In this document: positions 1,611-43,910 of the stretch, piece after piece
Layout of the letters: each line of letters starts with the position of its first letter
Position numbering within the stretch: the stretch's first letter is position 1
Assembly (NCBI GenBank): GCA_030647965.1
Contig: JAUSIT010000028.1
Span: forward strand, 1 to 49,584
From: Nanobdellota archaeon
GTDB lineage: Archaea; Nanobdellota; Nanobdellia; Pacearchaeales; GW2011-AR1
Reading direction: 5' to 3'
Length of the DNA stretch: 49,584 nucleotides
Notes under the pieces: model-generated
The model's input: only the letters and a program-made list of their open reading frames with translations
Databases searched by the model: none
Told to the model about the DNA's origin: nothing
Position numbers and translations under genes: made by a program

Positions 1611-1742
1611 ATCAAAAAAACCCTTTTGATTATTCATATGGTTTTTAGGATGAAGGAAATTCGCTCGAATTTCCTGCCCTGAAAATTAAATCAATTTTCA
1701 GTGATCCAAAATTTAACTAAATGATAAAAAATTTATAGACAT
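1611..1742 (+). repeat. AT-bounded four-hairpin palindromic element
   Basis: ATCAAAAAA...GACAT; hairpins ggaaattc/gaatttcc and ctgaaaatt/aattttcag; collinear with reverse complement of 6039-6159. Confidence 0.8.
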
Positions 1743-2424
1743 GAAAGAACTTATAAAAAAGGAAAATAGCATATTTGAAATATTGCAGAAATTTATTGAT
1801 TCTTCCTTAAATTTTATTATTGTTGGAGGTTATGCAGTCTCATCTTTTAGGCATAGATTTTCTGTTGATGCAGATATGGTCATAAAAAACCAAGATTTAG
1901 AAGAATTTGAAATTATTTTGAGAAAAGAGGGTTTTAAAAAAATAATAAGTAAAGAATTAGAGAATATTTACTCTTCGAGATTTGTAAGATATAGTAAAAA
2001 TACGGCTAGCATTGACTTAATGATAGATGCTTTAGCTTCAAGAACAACAACTGCTTCATTTAGTTATGATATATTGTCAAATAACTCTTCTAAAAGAAAA
2101 ATAATCGGAATTGAAAAAGAAATAACTGCATTTGTTCCAGACAAAGAAATCTTAATAGTAACAAAAATTCATTCAGGAAGATTAACTGATTTTAGAGATA
2201 TTGCTGCTTTAGCAAAAGATTCTGACTTAAATAAAATACAGAAATTTCTGTTTATAGGAGATATAAATGAGGTCAATAAGAATTTAAGGGAGTTAAATAA
2301 AATTGTTAATGATAAAAAATTTATAGATTCATTTAAAGGAGTATTTATGGAAAAGAAATTTGACATTGATTTAAAACAGGTTAAAAAAATAAGTGAAATA
2401 AAAAATAACTTTAGAAAAGGATGA
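1741..2424 (+). CDS. Pol-beta superfamily nucleotidyltransferase (AbiEii/DUF6036-like putative toxin)
   Basis: VGGYAV...RFSVDADMV motif; later K..SGR..DFRD motif. Confidence 0.8.
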   Translation: MKELIKKENSIFEILQKFIDSSLNFIIVGGYAVSSFRHRFSVDADMVIKNQDLEEFEIILRKEGFKKIISKELENIYSSRFVRYSKNTASIDLMIDALASRTTTASFSYDILSNNSSKRKIIGIEKEITAFVPDKEILIVTKIHSGRLTDFRDIAALAKDSDLNKIQKFLFIGDINEVNKNLRELNKIVNDKKFIDSFKGVFMEKKFDIDLKQVKKISEIKNNFRKG

Positions 2425-2431
2425 TCTATTC

Positions 2432-2511
2432 AAAAAAGCATAACGAACCCTATCTAATTGTCCTGAGCTCAATCCTGAACCGTCATTCGTTCAATAGGAC
2501 TTACTCGTTAT
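2432..2511 (-). ncRNA. Candidate ~80 nt small structured RNA
   Basis: Minus-strand BRE/TATA at 2540-2533, three nested stems, closing T6 tract at 2437-2432. Confidence 0.5.
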
Positions 2512-2595
2512 AATAGTTATAGTATCGCTCATTATTTAAACTTTTGTAATAGGTTAAGTGTTAAATATTAAAACAGGTATTTCCTCTTAAAAAAT

Positions 2596-4497
2596 ATGAC
2601 TCAAAAGGAACCAATAAAATTAAATAAAGAACAGCAAGAAGCAGTTAATACTATAGATGGAAATCTTCTGATTATTGCAAGTGCTGGAACAGGTAAAACT
2701 ACAACTATAATTGAAAGGTATGTAAATCTAGTGCAAAATCACCAATATAAACCAAATGAGATAATGATGACTACTTTCACGAATAAAGCTTCAAAGGATA
2801 TGATTAGGAAGATTGTTGAAAGAACAGGTTCTGAACCGCCTTATATGGGAACAATGCACTCGCTTTTTTTAAAAATACTAAGGAGTCATGCCAGGAGTAT
2901 ATCTCTTGATCCAGAATTTACTTTAATCCATGATGAATATGACAAAAGAAAAATAATGAAAAAAATAATTATTGGGGAAGGAATTCCTAATAAACCAGAT
3001 AATGTTAATTATTTCTTATTTTGGATTAGTAAATTCAAGAATCGAGGAGTTTTAGCAGAAGATTTATCTGAAAAATCTACACTAGATGATAATATAAAAC
3101 AAGGAGTTATAGAAGAGATCTTAGATGATGATATTATTCAAGTAGATCCTAATTTAAGAAAATATGTTAATAAAATATATAAGATATATGAACAAGAACT
3201 TAAAAAAATAAATTCAATAGATTTAGATGACATTTTACTACTAACCTTTAAAATATTGGATAAAAATCCAGAAATAAAAGAAAGATATTCTCATAAATTT
3301 AAGGCAATTATGGTTGATGAAGCTCAAGATCTAAATGTTGTTCAGATTAATATTTTAGAATTATTAAAAAATAATAATATCTGTTTAATCGGAGATGATT
3401 GCCAAAATATTTATGAGTGGAGGGGGTCTTCAAATAAACTTGTTTTTGAATTTGATAAAACTGCTAAAAAAGTAATATTAAAAGAAAATTATAGATCTAC
3501 TAAAAAGATAATTACAGCAGTTAATAAAACAATAAATTCTTTTACAATTAAAATTGATAAAAATTTGATTTGCACTAGGGAAAGTGGAAAAGAGATATTA
3601 GTTGAATCATTTCATACTTTTGATTATGAAATAAAGTTTATTGTTCATGAAATTAAAAAATTAATAAAAAATAATATTCAAAAAGAAGATATTGCAGTTT
3701 TATTTAGAACAAACAATATGGGGAAACAAATAGAAAAAGAATTTAGAAGAAATAAAATCCTGTGTCACCTCTCTAAATCTAGAAGTTTTTTTGAAAGAGA
3801 AGAAGTAAGAGACATTATTTCATTATTAAAACTTAAACAAAATTATAATTCCCTTTATGACTTTGAAAGAATAATTAATTTACTTCCAAATTTCGGAGAA
3901 TCAAAAATACATAAATTAAAAGAGATATCAATAAATTATAAATGTTCTCTTGTAAACTCTTTAGATTATTCAGATGAACTAAAACTAAATGAGGATGGAA
4001 AATATAACTTAAATTTATTAAAGGATCTTTTATCAAGTAAGGAAAATCCTCTAAAACTATTTCTTAAAACTTTTAATTATCTGGGTAAGATTATTAATAA
4101 ATATAAAGATGATCCTGAAAAACTAGAAGATAAATTAGAAAATATTAAATTAATTGAAGGATTATTTGAAGAATATTCCCCTGATTTAGAAGGAATAAAA
4201 AATTTCTTAGATAGTTTAATAGAATTAGAGAAAAAAGAAAAAGATAGGGATAAAATAGTATTAACCACAATCCATAGTGCTAAAGGGTTAGAATGGAAAT
4301 ATGTATTTCTTGCAGGATGTAATGAAAAAATATTACCGTTTTATGTGCGGTCATTAACTCCTTTAAAGAGAGATAGTGAGTTAAGATTATTTTATGTGGC
4401 CATATCTAGAGCTAAGGATTTTCTTATTATAACTTATTCAGATAATCATCATTGGAAAGAACTAGATCCATCCCACTTTATAGAGATTATTAATTAA
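2596..4497 (+). CDS. uvrD: SF1A UvrD/Rep/PcrA DNA helicase
   Basis: LNKEQQEAV, ASAGTGKT, TFTNKA, VDEAQD, GDDCQNIYEWRG, ENYRS, TIHSAKGLEW, RLFYVAISRA. Confidence 0.95.
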   Translation: MTQKEPIKLNKEQQEAVNTIDGNLLIIASAGTGKTTTIIERYVNLVQNHQYKPNEIMMTTFTNKASKDMIRKIVERTGSEPPYMGTMHSLFLKILRSHARSISLDPEFTLIHDEYDKRKIMKKIIIGEGIPNKPDNVNYFLFWISKFKNRGVLAEDLSEKSTLDDNIKQGVIEEILDDDIIQVDPNLRKYVNKIYKIYEQELKKINSIDLDDILLLTFKILDKNPEIKERYSHKFKAIMVDEAQDLNVVQINILELLKNNNICLIGDDCQNIYEWRGSSNKLVFEFDKTAKKVILKENYRSTKKIITAVNKTINSFTIKIDKNLICTRESGKEILVESFHTFDYEIKFIVHEIKKLIKNNIQKEDIAVLFRTNNMGKQIEKEFRRNKILCHLSKSRSFFEREEVRDIISLLKLKQNYNSLYDFERIINLLPNFGESKIHKLKEISINYKCSLVNSLDYSDELKLNEDGKYNLNLLKDLLSSKENPLKLFLKTFNYLGKIINKYKDDPEKLEDKLENIKLIEGLFEEYSPDLEGIKNFLDSLIELEKKEKDRDKIVLTTIHSAKGLEWKYVFLAGCNEKILPFYVRSLTPLKRDSELRLFYVAISRAKDFLIITYSDNHHWKELDPSHFIEIIN

Positions 4498-4500
4498 TCT

Positions 4501-4641
4501 TCCCACCGCATCCCCAAAACCTTTTTAATCTTCTTGAAATTAGTGAGTATATCATGTTAAAACATCCTAATAAATATCAAACAGGTAAAACCATTATTTA
4601 TCTTGTGCGTCACGGTGAGAGAATACATATTCCTGGAACTC
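4501..4641 (+). repeat. Direct repeat copy 2
   Basis: Matches 736-875; belongs to the intact gene. Confidence 0.95.
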
Positions 4642-5138
4642 CCCCACCACATGATTTTGGCTTGAGCAAAAAGGGAATAAAACAAGCCAAAGATGTTGCT
4701 AAGAAATTTGTTAAAATAAAGGAGGAAGTTGATGCTCTTTATACTAGCCCAATGAAAAGAGCATTTGAAACAGCTGTTGAAATTGGTAAGAAAATAAATA
4801 AAAAACCAATAGTTATTAAGGGTTTAGAAGAGATTACTAAAATACTTGAAAAACCTAAACTTTTTAATAAAAACTATTGGGGGCAGAGAATAAAGTTTAG
4901 AAAAAAACAAAAAATATTTAATGAGCTTCTTAAAAATAATAAAGGCAAGGTAATAATCTTAGTAGCTCATGGAAGATTAAATAGGATGCTTCTTGGAAAA
5001 AAGCTTGGGCTTTCGCATAAAGCCAGCAATGTTTTTGATTCACATAACTGCCACATAACTATTGCTAGTTTTAAGGGTCAAAAGTTAGATTATATTCATT
5101 GTGTTAATAGTAAAGAGCTGATTAACATACAAGATTAA
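4554..5138 (+). CDS. Histidine phosphatase (phosphoglycerate mutase-like) family protein
   Basis: LVRHGE, LSKKGIKQA, SPMKRAFETA, LVAHG motifs. Confidence 0.9.
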   Translation: MLKHPNKYQTGKTIIYLVRHGERIHIPGTPPPHDFGLSKKGIKQAKDVAKKFVKIKEEVDALYTSPMKRAFETAVEIGKKINKKPIVIKGLEEITKILEKPKLFNKNYWGQRIKFRKKQKIFNELLKNNKGKVIILVAHGRLNRMLLGKKLGLSHKASNVFDSHNCHITIASFKGQKLDYIHCVNSKELINIQD

Positions 5139-5148
5139 GGATTTAATG

Positions 5149-5310
5149 TTACTTTTTCTTCTTTAATTTTATTTCGCCTTTTTTTATCTCTGCTTCTAGT
5201 TCATATCCTTCTAAACCAGATTCTTTAACATACATTGGAGGAATAATAACTGCATACTTATAGTATTTCTTATTTTTTCTCTTATTTGAAAGTTGTTTCT
5301 GAATCCTCAT
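5149..5310 (-). CDS. Small AbrB/MazE-like DNA-binding protein (53 aa, absent from ORF track)
   Basis: Manual translation MRIQKQLSNKRKNKKYYKYAVIIPPMYVKESGLEGYELEAEIKKGEIKLKKKK; VIIP..V...GL....L pattern. Confidence 0.7.
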   Translation of the reverse strand: MRIQKQLSNKRKNKKYYKYAVIIPPMYVKESGLEGYELEAEIKKGEIKLKKKK

Positions 5311-5371
5311 ATAATTAATAATAAACTAAAGGCTTTTTTATACTTGTCGGAACCTACTACTTTAAAGTTAC

Positions 5372-5389
5372 TATGTAGGTACCTACATA
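5372..5389. promoter_or_regulatory. Perfect 18 bp palindrome, putative operator
   Basis: TATGTAGGTACCTACATA abutting TATA-like TTTATAA (5390-5396) between divergent genes. Confidence 0.7.
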
Positions 5390-5418
5390 TTTATAAGCTT
5401 GTTTTCATATAAATCTTT

Positions 5419-5622
5419 ATGAAAAATAAATTTCTTGGAGTAGGCTGGAAGAGCAAAATTATCCTAAAAAGGGCTACTGCTTATATTTCAATAAATAAAC
5501 TTGTGGTAGATGGATGTTGCCTAGAAAAAGGGCAGGAATTATATTCTTATCTTGCTGAAGATAAAAAAGGGAGAAAAATAATAATTACTTATCTCGACGG
5601 AAAAAAGAAAGCTAAAAGTTGA
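5419..5622 (+). CDS. Small protein, possible AbrB-like swapped-hairpin fold
   Basis: TAYISINKLVVDGCCLEKGQEL resembles the AbrB pattern; TATA upstream. Confidence 0.55.
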   Translation: MKNKFLGVGWKSKIILKRATAYISINKLVVDGCCLEKGQELYSYLAEDKKGRKIIITYLDGKKKAKS

Positions 5623-5687
5623 AGTTTTTGCTTACGCAAAAACTTACACATTAATTATTTAAGTTTTATAAAGTTTTAAGATATACA

Positions 5688-6032
5688 ATGAGCGAGAGCC
5701 AATCAAGATATAGTATTGTAGAAAGATTAACTCAAAAGAAACTGGATATTATTTCTCAAAAGTTAGAATTAGCTGAAGATTTAAAACTTAAACAACAGAA
5801 AGTTGAACAATTAAAAAAAGAGATTGAAGATTGGGAAGATGATATTCAGCAAGATATTGAAAGAACAAGAAGATTAAAAAAAAGAGAAACAGAAAAATCT
5901 GAAATTGGAAGTGAAAATGCAAAACAAAGAATGGCGGCAAAAGAAGCTGCACTTGATGAAAAAATTAAAGCAATTGATAAAGCATTAGAAAGAATAGAAG
6001 AAATTAGCAAAACCTCTCCAACAAATCAATAG
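5688..6032 (+). CDS. Coiled-coil hypothetical protein
   Basis: 114 aa, E/K/Q-rich heptad pattern. Confidence 0.7.
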   Translation: MSESQSRYSIVERLTQKKLDIISQKLELAEDLKLKQQKVEQLKKEIEDWEDDIQQDIERTRRLKKRETEKSEIGSENAKQRMAAKEAALDEKIKAIDKALERIEEISKTSPTNQ

Positions 6033-6038
6033 ATTATA

Positions 6039-6159
6039 ATGTCAGAAATGAAAATTTCTGAGCACAAGAAAATCACTGATTTTCTGTGCCGAAAATTCCT
6101 TTATGGAATTTTCTTGCATCCCAAAAACCCAACAATAAAACCAAAGGGGTTTTTATGAT
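6039..6159 (-). repeat. AT-bounded four-hairpin palindromic element
   Basis: Reverse complement ATCATAAAAACCCC...TTTCTGACAT; same module order as 1611-1742. Confidence 0.8.
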
Positions 6160-6318
6160 CTCGAAAAAACAAAACTGGCCATGTGCCTGAGATGTAAACT
6201 GGAAAAAAATATGCAATGCCATGTTGCTGCATCCTTGCAGATTCAATTCTGCTAATAAAGGTTAAAAGTTTAATAATATAATTGCCTGCATAACCTGCGG
6301 GCATTTATCTTTAAAAAT

Positions 6319-6540: not shown

Positions 6541-6590
6541 CTTATTGAAAATACCCAAATAAATTTAAAGTTTAAAGGATTAATAATAAA

Positions 6591-7067
6591 ATGGAAGAGG
6601 ATACAACAAATATAGCCATATTTAATGGAAAAACAATAAGAAGAAAGCTTGTTGGAGATAAATGGTTTTTTTCTGTGATTGATGTAGTTTATGCCCTAAC
6701 AGATAGTACTATTCCTAAAAGATACTGGGCAGATTTAAAGGCAAAATTAATAGAAGAAGGATTTGAAGCGTACGATAAAATCGTACTGTTGAAATTAATA
6801 GCAGAAGATGATAAATTAAGAGAAACGGATTGTGCAGACACAGAAGGCATATTTAGAATAATTCAATCAATTCCCTCCAAAAAGGCAGAGCCATTTAAAA
6901 GATGGCTTGCTAAAATTGGTTACCTCAAAAATCTTCATGAATTTAGATTTCTGATGGTCCAAAAATTCCAAACAAATACTCAAGAATTTTTTGATGAAAG
7001 AATACAGGAGATAGAAAATCCTGAACTTGCACAAGAAAGGATGAAAAATTCAATTGAATTATGTTAG
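6591..7067 (+). pseudogene. Bro-N (phage antirepressor-like) protein, with in-frame insertion and probable C-terminal truncation
   Basis: WFFSVIDVV..LTDS..P.RYW.DLK, ETDCAD...FRIIQSIPSKKAEPFKRWLAK; stops soon after ELAQERMK. Confidence 0.75.
6922..6995 (-). repeat. Two-hairpin element inserted in frame (72 nt) in the Bro-N gene
   Basis: Splits conserved GY|ERIQEIENPE; reverse complement begins ATCAAAAAA. Confidence 0.75.
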
Positions 7068-7104
7068 TTAGTTATCCTCTTTCCAACCCTTAGCCCGCCC
7101 CCAT

Positions 7105-12594: not shown

Positions 12595-12992
12595 AAGCAA
12601 TAAGCGCAAGAACAACACGAGGATTAAATTTAGGAAGTGTAGTTGATGCAGCAGATAACAGCGGAGCAAGAAAAGTAAGAATAGTTTCTGTAAAACATGG
12701 AAAAGGAACAAAAGGAAGACAAATAGCTGCAAAAGTTGCTGATTGGGTTAAAGTATCTGTAAGAAAAGGAGATCCAAAAATGAAAGGCGAAGTATTTGAT
12801 GCAGTTGTTGTAAGACAAAGAAGAACATGGAAAAGAAACACAGGAGAAACAGTTGGATTCATGGATAATGCTGTTGTTTTATTAAAAGACGATAAAGGAA
12901 ATCCAAAAGGCACACAGATTAAAGGACCTGTTGCAAGAGAAGTTCAGGAAAGATGGAAGGAAGTAGCTAAACTAGCTACAGTGGTGTATTAA
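12591..12992 (+). CDS. rpl14: 50S ribosomal protein L14 (uL14)
   Basis: ADNSGA, AVVVRQR, DNAVVL, PKGTQIKGPVARE. Confidence 0.97.
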   Translation: MKAISARTTRGLNLGSVVDAADNSGARKVRIVSVKHGKGTKGRQIAAKVADWVKVSVRKGDPKMKGEVFDAVVVRQRRTWKRNTGETVGFMDNAVVLLKDDKGNPKGTQIKGPVAREVQERWKEVAKLATVVY

Positions 12993-12993
12993 T

Positions 12994-13052
12994 ATGAAAA
13001 ATAAAAATTTTTCAAATACTCGCTTGTGGAGGACAAGCTTCGTATAATGAAA
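12994..13052 (+). repeat. Two-hairpin element at the rpl24 start codon
   Basis: 24 nt identical to 15329-15352; bounded by ATGAAA direct repeats. Confidence 0.9.
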
Positions 13053-13538
13053 CAAAAATTCAGTATGAAATGGAGATCAAGCAAGCAACCTCGAAAACAG
13101 AGGAAATTCATAGCAAATGCTCCAATGCATATTAAAAGAAAAATGTTAACAGTTACTCTTGAAAAAGAATTAAGAAAAAAATATGGAAGAAGAAATATTG
13201 AAGTAAGAAAAAATGATGAAGTAAAAATCATGACAGGAAAATTCAAGAAAAAACAAGGAAAAGTTATTGAAGTTAATGTAAAAAAAATGAAAATATATAT
13301 TGAAGGAATACAAATTACAAAAAAAGAAGGAACAAAAGTGGGAGTAGGAATCCATCCTTCAAACCTGAAGATTATTTCATTAAATACAGACGATAAAAAA
13401 AGAATGAAACAAAGAAATGAGAAGAAAACAGGAGAAAAGACTGAAAATAAAAACGAAAAGAAAATGGAAAATAAAATAAAAACAGAAAAAACTCAAACTA
13501 AACAAACTGGAGAACAAAATGCACCTAAAAAGAAATAA
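13047..13538 (+). CDS. rpl24: 50S ribosomal protein L24 (uL24) with K/E-rich C-tail
   Basis: SKQPRKQRK...NAP.H, LRKKYG, IHPSNL; ATG 13047 preferred. Confidence 0.96.
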   Translation: MKQKFSMKWRSSKQPRKQRKFIANAPMHIKRKMLTVTLEKELRKKYGRRNIEVRKNDEVKIMTGKFKKKQGKVIEVNVKKMKIYIEGIQITKKEGTKVGVGIHPSNLKIISLNTDDKKRMKQRNEKKTGEKTENKNEKKMENKIKTEKTQTKQTGEQNAPKKK

Positions 13539-14169
13539 AATGCCTATTGTTTGGCCAATAAGAAGGAAAGGAACAAAATACATAGCAGTAGCTAGTCATT
13601 CAAGAACAAAATCAATCCCAGTATTATTTATTCTTAGAGACATGCTTGGACTTGTTCAAACAAGAAAAGAAGCAAAATATTTTGTTTTAAATGGAAATGT
13701 AAAAATAAATAATAAAATAAGAAAAGATGAAAAATTCCCTGTTTTATTTTTTGATACTTTAAGTTTTGAAAAAACAAAGAAAAATTACAGATTAGAAATT
13801 GTAAACAAAAAATACAAATTAAAAGAAATTTCCGATGCAGAAGCAAACAAAAAAATTGTAAAAATCATTGGCAAAAAAATTATTGATAAAAATAAAATAC
13901 AAATGAATTTAGAAGACGGACAAAATTTCTTTATGAAAGAAAAATTCGCTTTAGGAGATTCTGTTATAGTAGATACAAAACAAAATAAAGTTGAAAAAAT
14001 ACTTGAACTTAAAATTGGAGCAAAATTATTAATTATTGGTGGAAAACATCTTGGAGAATCTGGAAAATTAAAAGAAATTATTCCATTTGAAAGAGAGAAA
14101 AAATATAAAATTCAATTAAAAGATAAGGAAGTAATTCTTCCTGGGAAAACCTTTTTGGTTGTAGATTAA
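13519..14169 (+). CDS. rps4e: 30S ribosomal protein S4e (eS4)
   Basis: MHLKR...W.I.RK, LRDMLG, GGKHLG. Confidence 0.95.
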   Translation: MHLKRNKMPIVWPIRRKGTKYIAVASHSRTKSIPVLFILRDMLGLVQTRKEAKYFVLNGNVKINNKIRKDEKFPVLFFDTLSFEKTKKNYRLEIVNKKYKLKEISDAEANKKIVKIIGKKIIDKNKIQMNLEDGQNFFMKEKFALGDSVIVDTKQNKVEKILELKIGAKLLIIGGKHLGESGKLKEIIPFEREKKYKIQLKDKEVILPGKTFLVVD

Positions 14170-14170
14170 A

Positions 14171-14692
14171 ATGAAAGAAAATTCAATGAGGGACGTTAAA
14201 ATAGAAAAAGTGATTTTAAATGTAGGCGGGACTGGAGATAAACTTGAAAAAGGATTTATTTTACTTCAAACACTATCTGGAAAAAAACCAATAAAAATCA
14301 AAGCAAAAAAAAGAATTCCTACTTGGGGAGTAAGACCTGGATTAGAAGTTGGAACTAAGATTACTTTAAGAGGAGAAGATGCTGAAAAGATGATTAACAA
14401 AGTATTGCCTGCAATTGATAATGTATTAAAAGAAAGACAAATCAAAGATAATTTTGTTTCTTTTGGAATACCTGAATATATTGAAATTCCTGGAATGGAA
14501 TATATCAGAGAAGTTGGAATTATGGGTTTTGAAATTACTATTGTTTTCACAAGATCTGGAAAAAGAATTGAAAGAAAGAAAATAAAGAGAGGCGATGCAA
14601 AAAGACAAAAAGTAAGTGCAGAAGAAATTAAAAAAATTATGATAGATAAGTTTAAAACTAAAATTATAGCTAAGGGAGGAAGAGAACAATGA
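14171..14692 (+). CDS. rpl5: 50S ribosomal protein L5 (uL5)
   Basis: [29 protein letters not shown]. Confidence 0.97.
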
Positions 14693-14919
14693 CTGCAAGT
14701 GATTGGAATAAAGTAACTAAGCAGTTGAAAAACAAACCAGTTATATTAAAGAAATTTACAAAACATAATAAACCAAAAGTAAGAAAATTTGGAATCTCTT
14801 CAAAAAAATGCGAAAATTGCGGAAGATTCGGAGCCCATGTGGGACAATATGGATTAAATTTATGCAGGCAGTGTTTTAGAGAGCTTGCAGTTGAACTAGG
14901 GTTCAAGAAATATAGTTAG
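14689..14919 (+). CDS. rps14: 30S ribosomal protein S14 (uS14, Zn-type)
   Basis: CENCG...[18 protein letters not shown]. Confidence 0.97.
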
Positions 14920-14927
14920 GAGTCAAA

Positions 14928-15299
14928 ATGTCACATGATGTAATTGCTGATGCGCTAAACCAAATAATGAATGCTAAGAAAGTAGAACATAAAGAAGTTC
15001 AAATTAAAATGTTTTCCAAACCACTTATAGAACTATTAACTATAATGAAAAAAAGAGGGCATATTGATTTTACAAAAGAAGACGACAAAATTACAATTAA
15101 AATATTAAATGTAAATGAATGCAAGGCAATAAAACCAAGATATTTTGTAAGAGTAGTTGATATTGACAAATACTTAAAGAGATTTTTGCCTTCAAGAAAT
15201 TTTGGAACAATGATTATTTCTACAAACAAAGGTTTAATGGACCAATTTCAAGCTGAAGAAAATAAATTAGGAGGAAGCTTAATTGCTTATTTCTATTAA
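14928..15299 (+). CDS. rps8: 30S ribosomal protein S8 (uS8)
   Basis: D.IADAL, IKPRY, FLPSRNFG..IISTNKGLM, GG.LIAYFY. Confidence 0.97.
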   Translation: MSHDVIADALNQIMNAKKVEHKEVQIKMFSKPLIELLTIMKKRGHIDFTKEDDKITIKILNVNECKAIKPRYFVRVVDIDKYLKRFLPSRNFGTMIISTNKGLMDQFQAEENKLGGSLIAYFY

Positions 15300-15303
15300 G
15301 AAT

Positions 15304-15364
15304 ATGAAAATTTCATTAAATTTTCAATTACTCGCTTGTGGAGGACAAGCTTTGTACCATGAAA
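15304..15364 (+). repeat. Two-hairpin element at the rpl6 start codon
   Basis: Second copy of the 12994-13052 element. Confidence 0.9.
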
Positions 15365-15904
15365 CGAGATATTGAAGAAATTATAGAAATCCCAGAAGGC
15401 ATTGAACTTAGTTTGAACAATTTTGAAATAATTGTAAAATCAAAGGGTAAAGAATCAAAAAAAGCATTTGTTTTGCCTAATACAATTAAAATTGTAAAAG
15501 ACAATAAAATATTAAAATTAATTGCAAAAAATTCAACAAAAAGAGAATCAAAACTAATTGGAACAACTGTTGCACATATAGAAAATATGATTAATGGAAT
15601 GAATGAAGAATTTGAATATAAATTAGAAATATGTAATGTACACTTTCCAATGAATGTCAAAGTTGAAGGAAATAGAATGATAATTAAGAATTTTTTAGGC
15701 GAAAAAGTTGACAGAATTGCAAAAATACTGCCTGGAGTTAAAGTAGAAGTTAAAGGAAACAAAGTAGATATAACTTCACATAATAGAGAAGCTGCAGGAC
15801 AAACAGCTGCAAATGTTGAAACAGCAACAAAAGTTAGAGGAAGAGATAGAAGAATTTTCCAAGATGGAATATTTTTAACAGAAAAATGTGGGAGGAAGAT
15901 ATAA
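15359..15904 (+). CDS. rpl6: 50S ribosomal protein L6 (uL6)
   Basis: AHIENMING, HFPM, NFLGEK, GQTAAN, DRRIFQDGI. Confidence 0.97.
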   Translation: MKRDIEEIIEIPEGIELSLNNFEIIVKSKGKESKKAFVLPNTIKIVKDNKILKLIAKNSTKRESKLIGTTVAHIENMINGMNEEFEYKLEICNVHFPMNVKVEGNRMIIKNFLGEKVDRIAKILPGVKVEVKGNKVDITSHNREAAGQTAANVETATKVRGRDRRIFQDGIFLTEKCGRKI

Positions 15905-20386: not shown

Positions 20387-20800
20387 ATGACTATTTCAGA
20401 ACTTATAATTTCTTATCCAATTTATGCAATTATAATAATTTCATTTATTGCAACTTTTGTATCTACATTAATAACAAAATGGCTTGTTAATCAGGAAAAC
20501 TTAAAAAATATTAAAAAAAGGCAAAAGGAAATTCAAACAGAATTAAAAAACTGCAAAGATGACTGCAAATTAAAAGAATTAAATGCTGAAATGATGCAGC
20601 TAACAGCATCAATGTTCAAAGATTCATTTAAACCATTAATAATAACTATGGTTCCATTTTTAATTTTATTTTATTGGATGAGCAGTGAATTTGCACCTTT
20701 AATTTCAGGAAAATTTTTATTTCCAATGTGGATTTGGTATTATTTAGGGGCAAGCATAGTTGCAAGTATTCTTTATAGAAAGTTATTGAAGATGGCGTGA
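20387..20800 (+). CDS. DUF106 / EMC3-TMCO1 (Oxa1 superfamily) membrane protein
   Basis: TM, coiled coil, SFKPLIITMVP, W..YY; position after secY. Confidence 0.85.
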   Translation: MTISELIISYPIYAIIIISFIATFVSTLITKWLVNQENLKNIKKRQKEIQTELKNCKDDCKLKELNAEMMQLTASMFKDSFKPLIITMVPFLILFYWMSSEFAPLISGKFLFPMWIWYYLGASIVASILYRKLLKMA

Positions 20801-20845
20801 AGTTTCTCTTTTAGGAAAAGAGAAGCTCTCAGGTAAGAGAAAACT
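20801..20845. terminator. Hairpin between convergent genes
   Basis: agtttctctttt-agg-aaaagagaagct. Confidence 0.4.
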
Positions 20846-20861
20846 ATTATTATAAAAAATT

Positions 20862-22103: not shown

Positions 22104-22289
22104 TTGCTGATGAAATGCTGAATTAAATATTCTATTAATGATGCTCGCATAATTTGCACTTCGTTAAGATATTAAGTCGCCTAGCTGCTCCTAACTTTTA
22201 TTAATGATAAATCATTTTCTCATTATTTGATACAGTATTAATTATCCACATTTGCCGCCAGGCAAATCCATTTATCCTTGCATCAGCAA
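22104..22289 (-). repeat. ~200 bp structured dispersed repeat (family A), copy 1
   Basis: Reverse complement attaataaaagttaggagcagctaggcgacttaatatcttaacgaagtgcaaattatgcgagc nearly matches ~28428-28491. Confidence 0.9.
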
Positions 22290-22348
22290 CATTATATACT
22301 CCAAAACGATTAGCCAACATTTAAAAATTAAATCAAACTTAAAGAAAG

Positions 22349-28348: not shown

Positions 28349-28567
28349 GCGTGCTAAGGCAAGATATATGGAATTTCTTAGCAGAAATTACGATTTATTA
28401 ATATTGAAATGAAAATGATTTTAGAGAATTAATAAAAGTCTAGGAGCCGCGAGGCGACTTTATATTCTAACGAAGTGCAAATTATGCGAGCGAGCCGTAG
28501 CGAGCGAAAAAGTTTTGCTCTTCTATCTTGCGTTACTTATGCAAGAGCAAAACTTTTTGAGCATCAG
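28349..28567 (+). repeat. Family A repeat, copy 2, with nested 52 bp hairpin (28507-28558)
   Basis: Shares GGCAAGATATATG..AATTACGATTTATTAATA with the 43.7 kb copy and its 3' half with the 22.1 kb copy. Confidence 0.9.
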
Positions 28568-28603
28568 ATATAAATTTAAAAGCTATAAGTTATATTTTAA
28601 GAT

Positions 28604-34991: not shown

Positions 34992-36104
34992 ATGAAAATA
35001 CTAATAACCGGAGCAACAGGATTTATTGGAAGCCATTTAGTTGAAGAGCTGAAAAAAGATAAGAAAAATAGTATAAGATGTCTTGTTTTGAAAAATAGCC
35101 CTATTTTTAAAAAAAATAGAGAAAAAAGAGAATTAGAGCTTAAAAATTTAGGTGTTGAAATATTTTATGGGGATTTACTTGATAAAGATTCTTTAATTAA
35201 TGCACTTAAGGGTGTTGAAAAAGTATATCACTTAGCTGCAATAAGCAGGCCTATGAATGTTGAAAAGCATGTTTATTATGATATTAATGTAATAGGAACA
35301 AAAAATTTATTTGAGGCTTGCAAAATAAAAAAAGTCAAGAAAATAATACATGTTTCTACAATGTCTGTTTTTGGATTTTCAAGAAATGGAAATCCTTTAA
35401 ATGAAAACTCCCCAAAACTTCCTGTAAGTGATTATGGAGAAAGTAAAAAACAGGCAGAGGATTTTGCTTTTGATTTTTGCAAAAAAAATAAAATTCAACT
35501 AGTTGTTATAAGACCTCCAATGGTTTTTGGGCCAAGAGATTTTCAATTTTTAAGATTGTTTAAATTAATTAATACTGGATTTTTTCCTTTATTAAAAAAA
35601 GGAAGAGCAAAATTAGAATTTTGTTATGTTAAAAATTTAGTTAATGGAATAATTCTTGCAGATAAATATGGTAAAAATCTAGAAGCTTATGATATTTCTG
35701 ATGGCCAGACATATACTATAAAAGAAGTTTTTGGAAAAATTGCAGAAGTAGAAGGGAAAAAATTATTTCCTTTTTCTGTTCCTGTTTTTTCTGTAAGAAT
35801 TATAGGATGGATATTTGAAAAAACATATGGCTTATTTGGTAAAAAAGCACCTTTTAATTCAGGAACAGGATTATGGATGAGTAAGGACAATGTAATGGAT
35901 ATTTCAAAAGCTAAAAAAGAGATTAAATATTCAAATAAAATTAATCTTGAAGAAAGTATAAAAGAAACAGTTAAATGGTATCAAAAAAACAATATGCTAC
36001 CTACACCTAAAGGCGGGAATTTAAAAAGCAGTAGCACTTGTTTTTTGGATGATCCGAAATTAAAACCAGTAAATTTCGGACATAAAAGTGAGGGTTTATT
36101 ATGA
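34992..36104 (+). CDS. NAD-dependent epimerase/dehydratase (extended SDR), with C-terminal in-frame insertion
   Basis: TGATGFIG, HLAA, YGESK, RPPMVFGP. Confidence 0.92.
   Translation: MKILITGATGFIGSHLVEELKKDKKNSIRCLVLKNSPIFKKNREKRELELKNLGVEIFYGDLLDKDSLINALKGVEKVYHLAAISRPMNVEKHVYYDINVIGTKNLFEACKIKKVKKIIHVSTMSVFGFSRNGNPLNENSPKLPVSDYGESKKQAEDFAFDFCKKNKIQLVVIRPPMVFGPRDFQFLRLFKLINTGFFPLLKKGRAKLEFCYVKNLVNGIILADKYGKNLEAYDISDGQTYTIKEVFGKIAEVEGKKLFPFSVPVFSVRIIGWIFEKTYGLFGKKAPFNSGTGLWMSKDNVMDISKAKKEIKYSNKINLEESIKETVKWYQKNNMLPTPKGGNLKSSSTCFLDDPKLKPVNFGHKSEGLL
35980..36083 (+). repeat. AT-bounded two-hairpin element inserted in frame (102 nt)
   Basis: ATCAAAAAAA...GGACAT; removal restores WYKSEGLL*. 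Confidence 0.75.
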
Positions 36105-37318: not shown

Positions 37319-37346
37319 GTTAGTATTTAATTGAATTTATTTTCAT

Positions 37347-38936: not shown

Positions 38937-39022
38937 TAATATTCTTGTATAATTGGGTTTTTATTTATTACTTATATGAGAAAAATTCATTTAAAAGAAT
39001 TTATGTAGGGGATTTTAGGTGA

Positions 39023-39910: not shown

Positions 39911-39960
39911 AATCAACAAACTACCGATAGATTTAAATATGTTTTTAGAAAGTTTATTTT

Positions 39961-40350
39961 ATGAAATACCCATTAGATGAGCTAATTGACAAGAAGTCAA
40001 TAATTCAGCTTAAAACAGAAAGAATTGAAGATAGTACTGACAGGGAAAGATTAAAGGGGGAGTTAAAAGATTATTCTCAAGCTATTGAAGAGTATATTCT
40101 AGGGGAGGTTTGCAATCCTGAACAAGTTCAAAATTGGTATAAAAGACTTTATGAAGCAAATGGAAAAACATGGGATTTAGAAGTAAATATAAGAAAAGGC
40201 CAGCTCGGGACAATGAGCTTAGAAGAAGTTGGAAGAACTGCAATTAAAATAAGAGAATCAAATGGAGTAAGAGTTAAAATAAAAAGTGAGATTGTAGAAG
40301 CAACAGGAATTGGATATAAAGATATTAAGATTAATCATGCTTCTCAATAG
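39961..40350 (+). CDS. Helical hypothetical protein (DUF6165/DUF4254-like)
   Basis: ELIDK.SI..LK.ERI, N...WDLE..IR, N..R...K..I pattern. Confidence 0.6.
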   Translation: MKYPLDELIDKKSIIQLKTERIEDSTDRERLKGELKDYSQAIEEYILGEVCNPEQVQNWYKRLYEANGKTWDLEVNIRKGQLGTMSLEEVGRTAIKIRESNGVRVKIKSEIVEATGIGYKDIKINHASQ

Positions 40351-41718
40351 TTATAGATCAAAACCATAAAGTTCTTTATCTGCTGTTTTTCTAAAATTTT
40401 TATACATTCTTGAATAAGTTTCATTTACTTCTTTGTTTGGAATTTCTAAAAGTTCAATTAATCTTTCTTGAGTATAGACTTCAGGATATTTAACTGCTAA
40501 TGCAAATAATTTCTGAAGATTTACTCTTTCATTTTTATTTGGAATTTCAATAACAGACTGATCAAAAAAATTATTTCCTATATCTGAAAAATCTCCTTTG
40601 TAAACTCCTTCCTTAACACATCTTTCACCTAATTCTGTTTTTGGATAGGGCTGAAATAAACTAACCCAAGAATAATTTGGCTGGCACTGCCTATTTAATT
40701 CTAAAGTTTCTAAATCATCTTCTAAACTAGTGAACGGCAAGCCGATTATATTTTGAAGCATTACTTTAATCCCTTTTTCTTTTAATTTTTTAACAGAATC
40801 TATTATTTGTTCATTAGTCATATTTCTATTTAATATATTTCTTCTTACATAGTCAGAGCCTGCTTCAGAAGCTATATGAACACTATAACATCCTGCATCT
40901 GAAAGAGAATTAATAATTTCATCATTTACTAAATTTGCTCTTAAGTGTGAATGAAATGGCAAATTTATTTTTTGTTTATATTTTTCTGAAAATTCTTTAA
41001 CCCATTCTTTATTTAAAATAAAAGTATCATCTTGAAAATAAATAAATTTTGTAGGAGATTCTTCAACTACTTGTTTAACTTCGTCTAAAAGATTATCAAC
41101 AGATCTAAATCTTACTCTTTTTCCTTTATCTTGATATATTTCTGAATAAGATGCATTAAAACAATAAGAACAATTAAATGGGCATCCCCTTGAAGCAATA
41201 AAATGTTTTATAGGCCCATCACCAATATTAGGATATTTAAAAACAAGTTCTCTATCTGGAAATGAAATTTCATCAAGATTAGCAATTAAATTTCTAGGAG
41301 GATTAGAATAAATTTTATTATCTTTTTTGACCCATAAATTTTGAATATTAGTAATATCCTGTTTTTTTTCAAGTTTATTACATAACTCTGAAAAAGAAAG
41401 TTCTCCTTCTCCAATATTTATTGCATCAAAACTTGAATCTTTAAACCATTCTGGAAAAAATGTAGGGTGAGGCCCCCCTGCAATTGAAAATTTATCATAT
41501 TTTTTTAGTTGGCGATTAGTATTATCAAAAAATTGATGGTCTCCTGTAATCAAGCTATAAGCCAGTATATCTGGAGAAAACTCTTCTACCTTATTTTCTA
41601 AATTTTCTGTTGTTAGTACTAAATCTGTTGAATGGCCCTGTTTTTTTAGTGAAGATGAAAGGTACATCACCCCTAAAGGTTCGATATTAAAAGGCTTTGA
41701 AATAAATAATACCTTCAT
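40351..41718 (-). CDS. B12-binding-domain radical SAM protein
   Basis: EPLG.MYL, GGPHPT, GEGE, SRGCPFNCSYC, DDTF. Confidence 0.92.
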   Translation of the reverse strand: MKVLFISKPFNIEPLGVMYLSSSLKKQGHSTDLVLTTENLENKVEEFSPDILAYSLITGDHQFFDNTNRQLKKYDKFSIAGGPHPTFFPEWFKDSSFDAINIGEGELSFSELCNKLEKKQDITNIQNLWVKKDNKIYSNPPRNLIANLDEISFPDRELVFKYPNIGDGPIKHFIASRGCPFNCSYCFNASYSEIYQDKGKRVRFRSVDNLLDEVKQVVEESPTKFIYFQDDTFILNKEWVKEFSEKYKQKINLPFHSHLRANLVNDEIINSLSDAGCYSVHIASEAGSDYVRRNILNRNMTNEQIIDSVKKLKEKGIKVMLQNIIGLPFTSLEDDLETLELNRQCQPNYSWVSLFQPYPKTELGERCVKEGVYKGDFSDIGNNFFDQSVIEIPNKNERVNLQKLFALAVKYPEVYTQERLIELLEIPNKEVNETYSRMYKNFRKTADKELYGFDL

Positions 41719-41793
41719 GCTAAATGCACAATAATAATGTTTATAAATTTAATAATCTATTTTCGTAATTGTATAAAGGTAACAAAATAACCA

Positions 41794-43671
41794 ATGAAAG
41801 CACTAATACTCGCTGGCGGAAGAGGAAGCCGGTTAAACGAATTAACAAAAGACAAAAACAAAAGCATGTTAGAACTATTTGAAAAACCCCTTATTGAGTA
41901 TAATTTAGGGCATGCTTTTGAAGCAGGTGTTGGCGAGATTATAATTGTTGTGGGTTATAAAAAAGAAGATATTATCAAATATGTAGGAAATAGCTATAAG
42001 GGGATAAAAGTCAGCTATGTTGTTCAAAAAGAGCAAAGAGGGGTTGTTAATGCTATTGAAAGTGCAAGAAAAGCAATTGGAAAAAGTGATTTTATTCTTA
42101 TGCTGGCTGATGAAATAGTTGTTGATGCAAAATTAAAAGAAATGGCTGAAAAATTTAAAAAACAAGAGCTTTTTGGAATTTGTGGAGTAACTTTTGAAAC
42201 AGATAAATCCAGCATTGGAAAGACTTATTCTTCAATGGTTAATGAAAAAGGAAGAGTTTTCAGGTTAATAGAAAAACCAAGATTCCCAATAAATAACATT
42301 AAAGGAACAGGGCATTGTATTTTGAAAAATGAAATTTTAGATTATATTGAAAGAACCCCTATAAATGCAAACAGGGGAGAAAGAGAGTTAGTTGATTTAA
42401 TTCAGTGTGCTGTTGATGAAGGAAAAAAAGTTTATGTTTATCCTATAACAAAAGCTTATGTTAATGCAAATACACAAGAAGATTTTGATTTAGCAAAAGA
42501 AATGATTAAAAAATCAAATCCAAGAGTTTTAATTGTTCATACTCAAATGAAATATTTAGGTGGAGCTGAATTGCTTATTGTAGAATTATGCAACTGGCTG
42601 ACAAAAAAAGGAGTAAAAAATGACATATTAGCTTTATCAAAATCAAAAGAAGTTGAAAATTCTCTAATTAATACAAATATAATTATCCCAAAGCACAATA
42701 TTGATTTGTCTCCCCCTGGATTTAAAAATTCTAAAGATATTTTAGATTTTATAAAAGTATATAGAGGAGAATTAAGAAAATTAGCAAAAGAATATGATGT
42801 TATTAATTTTCATAATTTTCCTGCAACTTGGACATTATTTCCAAGAAAAAAACCTTGTGTCTGGATGTTAAATGAACCTCCAAATTTATGGAGCAAGCCA
42901 AATGCAAGCTTTTCATTGAAAATGCTAAATAAAATAAGAAATTATGTAGATAGAGAAATTATTAGAAATTCAGTAGATATTATTTGTGTTGCAGACGATT
43001 TTAACAAAGAAAGAGCAAAAATAAGATATAAGAAAAATCCAAGACTTTTTTATTATGGTGTTAATTATGATTTTTTCTCTAAAGGAAATGCTGAAAAAGC
43101 AAGAAAAAAATTTAATTTAAAAAATAAATTTATAGTTATTCAATCTGGAATGCTTACTGAACAAAAAAATCAACTAGAAAGCATAAAAACAATTAACCAT
43201 GTAAAAAAAGAAATTCCAAATATCTTGCTAGTTTTAGCTGGAAAAGCAGATGAAGATTATAAGAAAAAATTAAATAATTATATTTTAAAAAATAATTTAG
43301 AAAAATATGTTTTATTTACAGATAATTTAAACAGAGAAGACTTAAGAGATTTATATGAGGCAAGTGATGTAGGTTTATTTCCTATTGGAAAGCAAGGAGG
43401 ATGGCTTGCACCATTTGAAATGCTTTGTTCTGAAAATCCAATAATTGTTTCAGAAGATTTAGGTGCTGCTTCTATAATTAAGAAAAATGAATTAGGTAGT
43501 GTAACAAATAATTATACAGATGCACTAATTAAAATTTATAAAAATAAACAAGAATATAAAGATCAGGCAAAAAAAGCTGCATTATGGATTAGTAAAAATC
43601 TTGGATGGAATGTTTTTGCAGACAAAATGATTAAGGCATATAAAGATGCATGGAAGATGCATCGGGGATAA
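41794..43671 (+). CDS. Sugar-phosphate nucleotidyltransferase fused to GT4 glycosyltransferase
   Basis: LAGGRGSRL..LT...K, EKP, RGE.ELVD; then GGAE, KNQ, PFE GT-B domain. Confidence 0.9.
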   Translation: MKALILAGGRGSRLNELTKDKNKSMLELFEKPLIEYNLGHAFEAGVGEIIIVVGYKKEDIIKYVGNSYKGIKVSYVVQKEQRGVVNAIESARKAIGKSDFILMLADEIVVDAKLKEMAEKFKKQELFGICGVTFETDKSSIGKTYSSMVNEKGRVFRLIEKPRFPINNIKGTGHCILKNEILDYIERTPINANRGERELVDLIQCAVDEGKKVYVYPITKAYVNANTQEDFDLAKEMIKKSNPRVLIVHTQMKYLGGAELLIVELCNWLTKKGVKNDILALSKSKEVENSLINTNIIIPKHNIDLSPPGFKNSKDILDFIKVYRGELRKLAKEYDVINFHNFPATWTLFPRKKPCVWMLNEPPNLWSKPNASFSLKMLNKIRNYVDREIIRNSVDIICVADDFNKERAKIRYKKNPRLFYYGVNYDFFSKGNAEKARKKFNLKNKFIVIQSGMLTEQKNQLESIKTINHVKKEIPNILLVLAGKADEDYKKKLNNYILKNNLEKYVLFTDNLNREDLRDLYEASDVGLFPIGKQGGWLAPFEMLCSENPIIVSEDLGAASIIKKNELGSVTNNYTDALIKIYKNKQEYKDQAKKAALWISKNLGWNVFADKMIKAYKDAWKMHRG

Positions 43672-43687
43672 AAATTTTCTAATAATT

Positions 43688-43910
43688 TGATGCTCGCTTC
43701 GCTCGCATATGATGTGCCTGATGGCAAGATATATGAAATTTTCTAGCAAAAATTACGATTTATTAATAATTCTGATACAGAATTTCTGGGTAGGATTTTT
43801 ACTAATAAATCGTTAGGAGACGCCAAAAAGTTTTACTCTTACAATAAGTAACGATAATAGAAGAGTAAAACTTTTTCAGTCGACTTAGTATTATCACAAA
43901 GTGCTAAATT
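43688..43910 (+). repeat. Family A repeat, copy 3, with nested 52 bp hairpin (43825-43876)
   Basis: Homologous to the 28.3 kb and 22.1 kb copies. Confidence 0.9.

Follow-up and report, generated by a model that had tools for sequence, protein, structure and literature searches.

The window analysed here (49,584 nt) is a complete contig (C16, JAUSIT010000028.1) from the genome assembly of a Nanobdellota archaeon. It holds ribosomal-protein genes, an NAD-dependent epimerase gene and a Bro-N gene and, between and within its genes, ten short hairpin elements, which are the subject of this study. The host is a groundwater, Pacearchaeota-like DPANN archaeon with a 982-kb genome. Its assembly (G000, the own genome) comprises 981,990 nt in 45 contigs with 28% G+C and is 85% complete by marker genes. 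With the window's uS8 as query, the nearest named relatives are metagenome-assembled genomes (MAGs) titled Pacearchaeota, Woesearchaeota or Nanoarchaeota, in agreement with the assignment to the DPANN archaea in an earlier reading made from the letters of the contig (the sequence-only reading). The elements are repeated, structured and absent from the orthologous sites of relatives, and their exact excision restores reading frames. They probably represent several families of short non-coding mobile DNA of the miniature inverted-repeat transposable element (MITE) kind, multiplied in this host and similar in effect to the Rickettsia palindromic elements (RPEs). We label the families T (subtypes B and D), A (composites of the modules M1 and M2), M3, E and F. 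The window holds the following copies:

580..693, no strand assigned: F-family hairpin, CAAATGGG...CCCATTTG, with half an M3 hairpin inside (19 nhmmer copies; fold z = -3.88)
1611..1742, plus strand: T element, B subtype, 132 nt (sequence, family alignment; fold z = -4.03)
6039..6159, minus strand: T element, B subtype, 121 nt, four tandem hairpins (sequence; fold z = -6.73)
6922..6995, minus strand: divergent minimal T element, 74 nt, in frame in the Bro-N open reading frame (ORF) 6591-7067 (Pfam Bro-N match)
12994..13046, plus strand: E element, 53 nt, preceded by the uL14 stop and followed by the uL24 ATG at 13047 (Pfam uL14, uL24)
15304..15358, plus strand: E element, 55 nt, preceded by the uS8 stop (15297-15299) and followed by the uL6 ATG at 15359 (Pfam uS8, uL6)
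22104..22290, minus strand: A composite (M1, spacer, M2) with no M3, bounded by TTGCTGATG / CATCAGCAA (fold z = -4.35)
28349..28575, plus strand: A composite (M1, M2) with M3 near its right end (sequence, architecture; fold z = -3.42)
28506..28559, no strand assigned: M3 palindromic hairpin, 54 nt, AAAAAGTTTTGCTCTT-loop-AAGAGCAAAACTTTTT, T5 run on either strand
35980..36083, plus strand: T element, D subtype, 104 nt, in frame within the NAD-dependent epimerase ORF 34992-36104, close to its C-terminal end (Pfam Epimerase)
43688..43910, plus strand: A composite (M1, spacer, M2) with M3 at 43824-43877 in the M2 loop (fold z = -3.86)

All nine inserts claimed in the sequence-only reading were found at their coordinates; the F copy at 580-693, missing from its list, is a tenth. 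The ten elements measure 53-227 nt and fold with z scores of -2.45 to -6.73 against 100 mononucleotide shuffles each, and no ORF of at least 60 aa in the window ORF list is contained in any of them. A genome-wide self-BLAST, a check which that reading had proposed, gave 263 islands of short repeats with a total of 38,848 nt of the 981,990 (4.0% of the assembly). By rough ORF calls, 169 islands are intergenic, 68 lie within ORFs and 26 are mixed. Further copies were found for eight of the nine inserts, the seed at 6922 being the only one without a second copy by nhmmer. Iterated nhmmer searches with the window seeds yielded, after de-duplication, 87 copies of M3, 80 of M2, 56 of M1, 38 of T/D-type, 23 of T/B-type and 19 of F at 174 loci. 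Perfect hairpins (stem of at least 8 with at least 2 G/C) number 351 as against 207, 220 and 228 in three shuffles (1.6-fold), so the excess over shuffled DNA, on which the earlier reading had made its case depend, held. Hits of A, M1, M2 and M3 are intergenic in 221 of 223 cases; T has 45 intergenic hits and 11 within ORFs of at least 120 aa, where F has 5. Long self-repeats (at least 300 nt), considered as copies of an insertion sequence (IS), were rejected, being paralogous genes.

T elements stand between an A and a T and have the layout A-TCAGAAAAAC-core-GTTTTTNGGATGCTCAGAAAT-loop-ATTTCTGACA-T; their bounds may also be written A-TCAGAAAAAC ... TTTCTGACA-T. After the boundary A the 5' part reads TCA(G/A)AAAAAC and leads into a variable self-complementary core, followed by the junction GTTTTTNGGATG(C/A)TC(A/C)GAAAT, by a loop or extra GAAAAT...ATTTTC hairpins, and by ATTTC(T/G)GACA before the boundary T. 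Besides a head hairpin, a copy has one or more tail hairpins. Its first 11 nt pair with GTTTTTNGGAT, with a 2x2 mismatch inside, and a further pairing joins ATG-c-TCAGAAAT to ATTTCTGA-CAT. The termini, too, form an inverted repeat, of 7-8 bp (in 25 of 26 parsed copies 5' ATCAGAAA pairs with 3' TTTCTGA(C)AT). The element ends in GACA, and a tail hairpin stops 2-3 nt short of this 3' end. An ATC start and an ACAT or ACAC end are present in 25 of the 26 copies parsed by script; one row was mis-parsed. A 60-nt deletion derivative at C24:1202 has kept both ends. The AT-bounded pattern described in the sequence-only reading is thus borne out by 25 of 26 parsed T copies and by both window E copies, each of which lies between an AT and a start-codon AT. 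The ends it gave are correct, too: ATCAAAAAAAC...GACAT for 1611-1742, ATCAAAAAAAC...GGACAT for 35980-36083 and, for 6039-6159, the same family on the minus strand. As to the common origin of the inserts that it had raised, the copies at 1611, 6039 (minus strand) and 35980 align as one family, to which 6922-6995 (minus strand) belongs, by reading, as a minimal member; A, M3, E and F are separate, and no shared origin was found among them.

Taking L as the length of a T copy from its first A to its last T, L-2 is divisible by 3 in 9 of 9 copies lying wholly in called ORFs, in 5 of 11 intergenic copies and in 0 of 6 at ORF edges. Since lying in an ORF already demands the frame, the first of these counts is a check of the boundaries and not independent proof. 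Cutting exactly L-2 nt at C13:20181-20296 joins two fragments into a 350-aa ORF, the halves of which match positions 2-136 and 147-281 of the 287 positions of the ADP_ribosyl_GH profile. At C39:22629-22758 the cut of L-2 nt, here not a multiple of 3, yields a 214-aa ORF. From these two excisions we conclude that T adds L-2 nt at an AT. Its flanks are T-rich and then A-rich upstream, where one A only is fixed, and 22 of 26 rows have an A at position +2 on the downstream side (21 of 25 once the mis-parsed row is dropped). Start contexts like AAATGAAA match this target, hence the copies that share their final AT with a start codon, namely 1611 in the window and those at C22:7891, C34:3465 and C13:45947. 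No strand bias was seen (16 plus, 20 minus; Fisher p = 1.0 versus GC skew and 0.73 versus coding strand), which fits a symmetric double-strand insertion. When the two T ends are abutted via one AT, the result, TTTCTGA-CA-TCAGAAA, is a perfect inverted repeat of 7 bp with 2 nt at its centre. Such an arrangement would suit enzymes acting on joined ends, and IS30-type elements are a precedent for enzymes that use abutted ends. Behind every T stem and every M3 stem there is a run of five to seven T, whichever strand is read. Since oligo-T halts archaeal RNA polymerase, the T and M3 stems could plausibly serve as two-way transcription stops.

The T copies of the window illustrate both intergenic and in-gene placement. 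The copy at 1611..1742 lies between a stop codon (1606-1608) and an ATG at 1741, and its last AT is that of this start codon. The copy at 6039..6159 begins 7 nt past the stop of ORF 5688-6032 and has a 105-nt relative at C29:29284-29388 (nhmmer E 3e-25; BLAST 89% over 110 nt). The two in-frame copies contribute net inserts of 72 nt or 24 codons (6922..6995) and 102 nt or 34 codons (35980..36083). Eight host ORFs with T copies open to read-through were examined, including the window epimerase, a YggS-like pyridoxal phosphate protein (C13:46087-46839, Ala_racemase_N match), a large helicase and a cytidylyltransferase-like protein. Forward in-gene copies share one frame across the junction, F-L-D-(A/D)-P-K-L-K-P, and in-frame copies have TTG, TGG or GTG in place of the TAG of the common intergenic form GTTTTTAGG. 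Their family-model scores are below those of intergenic and gene-breaking copies, which fits older, selected survivors. In the ADP-ribosylglycohydrolase gene C13:19657-20808 a near-consensus T copy with an in-frame stop splits the gene, probably a recent knock-out. The earlier claim that the inserts cause little damage to genes is therefore only partly right, since two T copies break a gene, the one in the ADP-ribosylglycohydrolase gene and the one that splits the 214-aa ORF. Two T loci have additional features. The helicase among the eight hosts, a 1061-aa helicase-like ORF (C8:10958-14143) with an intein recognised by eye (CIGGDT...HNC block), carries its in-frame T insert near the C-terminus. 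At L155 (G327:C7:9279-12299) one 262-aa membrane-anchored ORF stands between two T copies that are nearly identical and oppositely oriented; the pair could be a composite unit or just two insertions side by side.

Comparison with relatives revealed sites without the elements. All GTDB relatives compared belong to other genera, with a nucleotide identity of 63-76%. In 3 of 3 relatives a spacer of 1-8 nt separates the genes that flank the insert at 1611. The uL14-uL24 junction (12994) is of the TAAAATG type in 10 of 11 rows, corresponding to 7 of 8 genomes, the eighth having an unrelated 245-nt spacer, and the uS8-uL6 spacer (15304) is at most 5 nt long in 46 of 82 loci. For 6922, tblastn detected a 24-aa gap, aligned on both sides, in the G014 homologue (56% identical). 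Moreover, in the alignments of two contigs from other organisms, 6911-6993 is skipped in one and 6923-7002 in the other, with a net loss of 72 nt in each case; both contigs come from X1, a groundwater metagenome, which is the only run found to contain nearly all sequence words of the own genome and is probably its source sample. No RNA run was among those listed as containing this sequence. The 34-aa block at 35980 is absent from all 119 epimerase homologues listed (224-361 aa, full-length ones 320-361 aa; 60-91% of the 370-aa query covered), none of which spans the insert. Nine aligned homologues end in WYKxxxLL or YYKxxxLL, and removal of the block turns the window's WY-(34 aa)-KSEGLL into WYKSEGLL. 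Intergenic spacers are shorter by ~200 nt at 22104 in G016, G003 and G006, and by ~200-220 nt at 28349 in G017 and G006. The five AT-bounded inserts considered removable in the sequence-only reading are thus supported by tight junctions (1611, 12994, 15304) and protein gaps (6922, 35980) in relatives, and the empty sites it had asked for exist, in other genera only. In a second metagenome run, X2, the same species is present as short contigs only, at ~3x depth, and no contig bridging an element was among the same-species contigs listed. The alignment of a contig from X3 stops at 15299, the uS8 stop, with 31 letters unaligned, and we draw no conclusion on an empty site from it.

A composites consist of M1 (a GGAATTTTC...GAAAATT hairpin), a variable spacer and M2, and were found between genes only. 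Copy 22104 has the terminal inverted repeats TTGCTGATG / CATCAGCAA, and a compact form of ~90 nt occurs at C43:8087, C13:84269 and C28:39138. The three ~200-bp copies of the window had already been recognised, two of them as bearing a nested hairpin; this hairpin is M3, present in 28349 and 43688 and lacking in 22104. M3 also stands alone. Its nesting sites are the M2 loop (GCCGC^TAGGCGAC), the M1 loop, the M2 arm (AACG^AAGTGC), the T core and, as a half-copy, F; at least four different host elements carry it. As M3-free versions are known for each M3-bearing host element, M3 must have entered them, with only 0-1 nt repeated at the junctions. Part of its copy number may stem from the spread of composites that already carried it.

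Beyond the own genome, the families differ in their distribution. With at most one mismatch allowed, the T junction motif was detected in 37 of the 401 genomes sampled from the order; these belong to 27 of 153 genera, and four GTDB families are represented in addition to the own one. It was counted 35 times in the own genome, where it is spread over many contigs, 148 times in G327, 17 times in G127 and 14 times in G048, as against 2 hits in total for the reversed control. T copies from eight other genomes (seven other genera) have the same ends, some with near-identical tail loops, and the metagenome locus L036 holds a B-type copy. In 946 kb of related loci, nhmmer found one T/B-type and three E copies and no M1, M2, M3, T/D-type or F; an A/M3 query returned only five weak matches in 200 other genomes. 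From the motif and nhmmer counts it follows that T is order-wide with patchy bursts. A and M3 look lineage-specific among the genomes searched. In viral contigs the T junction motif had 0 hits, an M3 16-mer at least 119 single chance-like hits with marginal model matches only (best E ~0.002), and an E 17-mer 3 hits, none in E context.

E elements are composed of the hairpin TGAAAAAT..ATTTTTCA (TGAAAAT..ATTTTCA) and a second hairpin, GCTTGT-GGAGG-ACAAGC. That two inserts of the window sit at ribosomal-protein start codons had been proposed before; Pfam confirms this, with the genes being uL24 (12994) and uL6 (15304). In the own genome there are seven raw nhmmer hits; a motif scan gave three full copies and one of the second hairpin only, and BLAST a fourth full copy on C30. 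The exact E 13-mer is found in 22 genomes of the order versus ~27 reversed-control hits, which is no enrichment, and because the bare 13-mer is no commoner than the control, only copies in full context were counted. All full copies examined face the next ORF. Its ATG lies at most ~16 nt from the second hairpin in 10 of 12 full copies, the tandem pair of G316 being 49 and 105 nt away. Six of the 12 precede ribosomal-protein genes, namely uL24 (two), uL6 (three) and uL10 (one); these calls were made by Pfam for the window pair and uL10 of G181, by tblastn for uL6 of G003 and L037, and by eye for uL24 of L023. Further copies lie ahead of a radical-SAM activase gene on own contig C30, of an 82-aa ORF of G406 and of other genes. 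The same E is present at the uS8-uL6 junction of G003 (L002) and of the metagenome locus L037, and at the uL14-uL24 junction of L023. The closest relatives, L023 (uS8 92% identical) and L024 (75%), have uS8-uL6 without E. The filled site of G003 matches the empty junction CTACTAATGAAAAAA found in G016 and G007, with an insert added between two ATs, so that E has the same AT flanks as T. Two E-like arrangements were noted in addition. Locus L164 (G316:C71, ~1465-1583) contains two tandem units in which the first hairpin differs (AAAGATTT..AAATCTTT) and the second hairpin with its GGAGG loop is identical to E. The uS8-uL6 junction of L023 holds a different insert of 110 nt with ATCAGAAAAAT and GGAGG before the ATG.

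We propose that T would enter at an AT in an A-rich context, with an A two bases downstream, and add its own length minus 2. Copies in genes would persist if they keep the frame and are free of stops, being then translated as peptide inserts of 24-51 aa, and other copies would break the gene. A composites would stay between genes, and M3 would have entered loops and arms of other elements. The elements would move as DNA, helped in trans by an enzyme that we infer to be missing from the 85%-complete assembly. The T-runs behind the stems probably let them halt transcription, and this would account for their being tolerated between genes. The term non-autonomous, used already in the sequence-only reading, appears appropriate: the elements are short, multi-copy, without an ORF of at least 60 aa, and absent from the orthologous sites of relatives, and none of eight transposase families searched in the own genome gave a hit on the window contig, where that reading had likewise seen no mobilising enzyme.

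Several observations weigh against this reading. In the own genome Y1_Tnp, OrfB_IS605, DDE_3, DDE_Tnp_1, DEDD_Tnp_IS110 and Y2_Tnp had 0 matches (families searched: PF07282, PF01797, PF13358, PF01385, PF00665, PF01609, PF01548, PF04986 and PF14214; RVT_1 and Phage_integrase were not searched). For Y1_Tnp (PF01797) control genomes do respond; for Helitron_like_N, also with 0 matches in the own genome, the control genomes are silent too, so that this blank says little, and the TnpB zinc-ribbon family produced only sub-threshold hits there. The sole transposase of the own genome is IS6-like (C9:412-1617, L140; 401 aa, DDE_Tnp_IS240 46 bits, N-terminal SWIM zinc finger), first caught by a weak rve hit. 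It was rejected as the mobiliser of T, as it has no T-like ends and its family occurs in 165 of 401 genomes regardless of T. Nor did the ends of T lead to an enzyme. No credible pair of orphan T ends flanking an ORF was found in the own genome, the 5' motif being of low complexity. The T-rich genomes G327, G127, G048, G246 and G361 contain DDE_Tnp_1 (four of five), Y1 (two of five), DDE_3 (one of five) and rve-like genes (three of five), and Y2 is present in three of the four searched among G327, G127, G048 and G361, with no Y2 in G246 in a separate scan; the full T end set was found at 0 of 25 transposase loci (DDE_Tnp_1, Y1, DDE_3, Y2, rve) of such relatives. The assemblies searched for a mobiliser are 78-88% complete. 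No empty allele was seen in the same species, so that movement is deduced from other genera. The AT at both ends of T is equally compatible with a 2-bp duplication and with entry between A and T. Finally, a conserved function would also fit a 21-nt T junction that is near-invariant across GTDB families.

As to the route of movement, the lack of strand bias of T and the lack of Y1/TnpB genes argue against an IS200/IS605-type mechanism. Helitron and IS91 elements are known for A-T insertion, a 5' TC, a 3' hairpin, a 3' CTRR and no inverted repeats, and T might be a non-autonomous relative of such rolling-circle elements; a Y2 HUH transposase would then insert it between A and T, with no duplication. 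The A-TC...CA-T flanks with a net gain of L-2 and the tail hairpin 2-3 nt before the 3' end speak for it. So does a weak co-occurrence, since T is found in 5 of the 12 genomes with Y2_Tnp (of 401) as against 32 of 389 others (odds ratio 8.0, Fisher p = 0.0025), and Y2 in three of seven other genomes with at least nine T copies. We nevertheless regard a rolling-circle origin as improbable. In T the terminal repeats are inverted and 7-8 bp long, the 3' end is GACA and not CTRR, strand bias is lacking, and full T ends occur at 0 of 11 Y2 loci, which have only isolated low-complexity matches. There is no Y2 hit in the own genome nor in the T-rich G127, G246, G257 and G296, and the co-occurrence itself is inflated by IS-rich fragmented genomes and counts related genomes that are not independent. 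Far less credible still is that the in-gene copies are intron-like and cut from the RNA, for instance by the bulge-helix-bulge endonuclease, leaving the host genes functional. Removal of L-2 nt does restore two interrupted ORFs, and the T ends can pair with each other. However, they form a 6-bp helix, a 2-nt bulge on one strand and 2 bp, and a bulge-helix-bulge consists of two 3-nt bulges around a 4-bp helix. Spliced elements would need neither frame nor freedom from stops, yet 9 of 9 in-ORF copies have both, and the in-frame copies carry variants that remove the TAG of GTTTTTAGG.

For E, which differs in behaviour from the other families and may have a function, as an RNA or a DNA module, instead of being junk, the alternative to mobile DNA deserves more weight, if it still appears the less likely one. 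E, and possibly part of T, would then be a cis-acting module kept by selection, a two-hairpin leader whose GGAGG loop, 15-16 nt before the start codon, acts, at tight operon junctions, in translation initiation, mRNA processing or protein binding; loss, or homing to start codons, would explain why the spread of E is patchy. In ten copies from eight genomes 97% of cells are paired and 6 of 14 pairs are changed on both sides, a covariation reached by 0 of 500 shuffles, with slid controls 31-56% paired. The constant orientation toward the next ORF and the six of 12 copies ahead of ribosomal-protein genes point in the same direction, as does an identity of ~90% between E copies of lineages (G003, L037) whose uS8 is only 54-55% identical to that of the window. 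Rfam 15 returned nothing at E <= 1 for the region 12900-15450, and the motif would hence be undescribed. Against such a module stands the distribution of E, which resembles insertion gain more than an ancestral regulator: L023 and L024 lack E at uS8-uL6, where nearly tight spacers prevail in 46 of 82 loci, and seven of eight other genomes are tight at uL14-uL24. Shine-Dalgarno sites normally lie nearer to the ATG than 15-16 nt. Furthermore, E also precedes unrelated genes (the radical-SAM activase, the 82-aa ORF), its exact 13-mer core is no commoner across the order than the reversed control, and its place between two ATs, like that of T, fits the same insertion route. The two views can be combined, albeit with a further drop in probability. 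E would be a mobile start-codon cassette that enters at AT, favours tight ribosomal-protein junctions and is selected for its effect on translation or RNA processing, and T, whose stems are backed by T-runs, would use this AT-directed route as well. A single insertion machinery would in that case distribute ready-made expression signals around a minimal archaeal genome.

With mobile DNA of the MITE kind as the preferred reading, the elements can be placed among known systems. Prokaryotic MITEs such as Sulfolobus SM, Correia and Nezha are likewise small, non-coding, multi-copy and mainly intergenic, with terminal inverted repeats and deletion derivatives that keep both ends; their short flanking repeats may have a counterpart in the AT at either end of T. 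In contrast to them, no parent IS with matching ends was found here, and the elements nest in each other's hairpin loops; IS630-type MITEs are flanked by TA, the present elements by AT. Palindrome-associated transposable elements (PATEs) are hairpin-rich non-autonomous elements derived from IS200/IS605 and known from archaea; here no TnpA was found, TnpB stayed below the cut-off, and a fixed left target of 4-5 nt and a strand bias are lacking. Repetitive extragenic palindromic (REP) sequences and bacterial interspersed mosaic elements (BIMEs), with their REP-associated tyrosine transposases (RAYTs), share the tandem modular palindromes between genes, and the elements that enter loops recall the known IS insertions into REP. 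The own genome, in contrast, has no Y1_Tnp, its units measure 50-230 nt versus 20-40 nt and occur in genes as well, and a GTAG/CGTC head (cf. PMC3733652) is absent.

RPEs are, like T, short palindromic repeats, many of them in frame in unrelated housekeeping genes, read through and without a known transposase of their own, and frequent in-frame insertion is treated as their speciality (PMC10969869, passages on RPEs). T differs from them in its archaeal host, fixed ends, AT flanks and modular string of hairpins; it is mostly intergenic (45 hits versus the 11 in ORFs), and two copies break genes. For membership in the RPE class, in-frame insertion was found in eight host ORFs, with gaps in the homologues for two, and read-through is predicted from the intact frames. 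It is the archaeal host and the absent Rfam match, not a comparison with RPE consensus sequences, that set T apart from the RPE families. To our knowledge there is no sequence relation between these elements and RPEs. For archaeal MITEs, the 2024 review PMC10969869 lists only Sulfolobus, Halobacterium, Haloquadratum, Desulfurococcus and 'several other' genomes, Haloquadratum thus counting among the archaea with such elements. A 2024 census has a Woesearchaeal genome among the MITE-richest archaea, with 105 MITEs per Mb (PMC11602168). Our literature search, whose scope ended before the supplements of PMC11602168 that may list the Woesearchaeal MITEs, found no description of the present families. 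The system of hairpin elements is real and abundant, MITE/RPE-like and new, with part of it order-wide and with a well-defined insertion geometry for T.

DPANN genomes are among the smallest cellular genomes, and still ~4% of this DNA consists of hairpin repeats, some of them within conserved enzymes or at the start codons of ribosomal-protein genes. Palindromic inserts that keep the frame, so far best documented in Rickettsia, arise in reduced archaeal genomes, too, and offer a second independent system for asking how proteins tolerate or exploit inserts. T, with its almost unchanged ends in 27 of the 153 sampled genera, could mark gene flow among uncultured Pacearchaeales, and these ends could be a handle for finding the mobilising enzyme. 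E is a candidate for a new cis-acting motif in archaeal ribosomal-protein operons. In practice, such repeats break MAG assemblies and distort gene calls, giving false long or split ORFs and shifted starts, and known ends allow cleaner annotation.

Some further observations concern the IS6-like gene and the remainder of the window. Full-length relatives of the IS6-like gene (61-70% identity, E <= 1e-160) are present in 25 other genomes, mostly in one copy each, and a fragment 97% identical to it lies at the contig end C7:3-221; the gene looks more like a vertically kept, possibly domesticated one than an active IS. With the Rfam 15 covariance models, the sole match above cut-off in the whole window is a DUF3800-X RNA (RF02984) at 2441-2510 on the minus strand (58.4 bits versus a gathering score of 38.2), outside the elements and just 3' of ORF 1741-2424. 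A direct repeat of 129 nt, 92% identical, at 751-879 and 4517-4645 takes in the beginnings of ORF 788-973 and ORF 4554-5138. It does not belong to the hairpin elements and could be a duplicated gene start or leader. The end of the window (49279-49584) is 95% identical over 306 nt, within an ORF, to the contig end C2:1-306 of the own genome, probably a paralogue or a repeat that broke the assembly. ORF 5688-6032 (114 aa) has a weak, sub-threshold Pfam line for TscT (19 bits versus a cut-off of 27) and, together with the neighbouring Bro-N ORF 6591-7067, may constitute a small mobile or defence islet. Lastly, one repeat falls outside the named families:

20799..20850, no strand assigned: small low-copy hairpin repeat, GTTTCTCTTTT..AAAAGAGAAGC (3 nhmmer copies)

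It lies just after ORF 20387-20800 and is 96% identical to C30:13649-13700.

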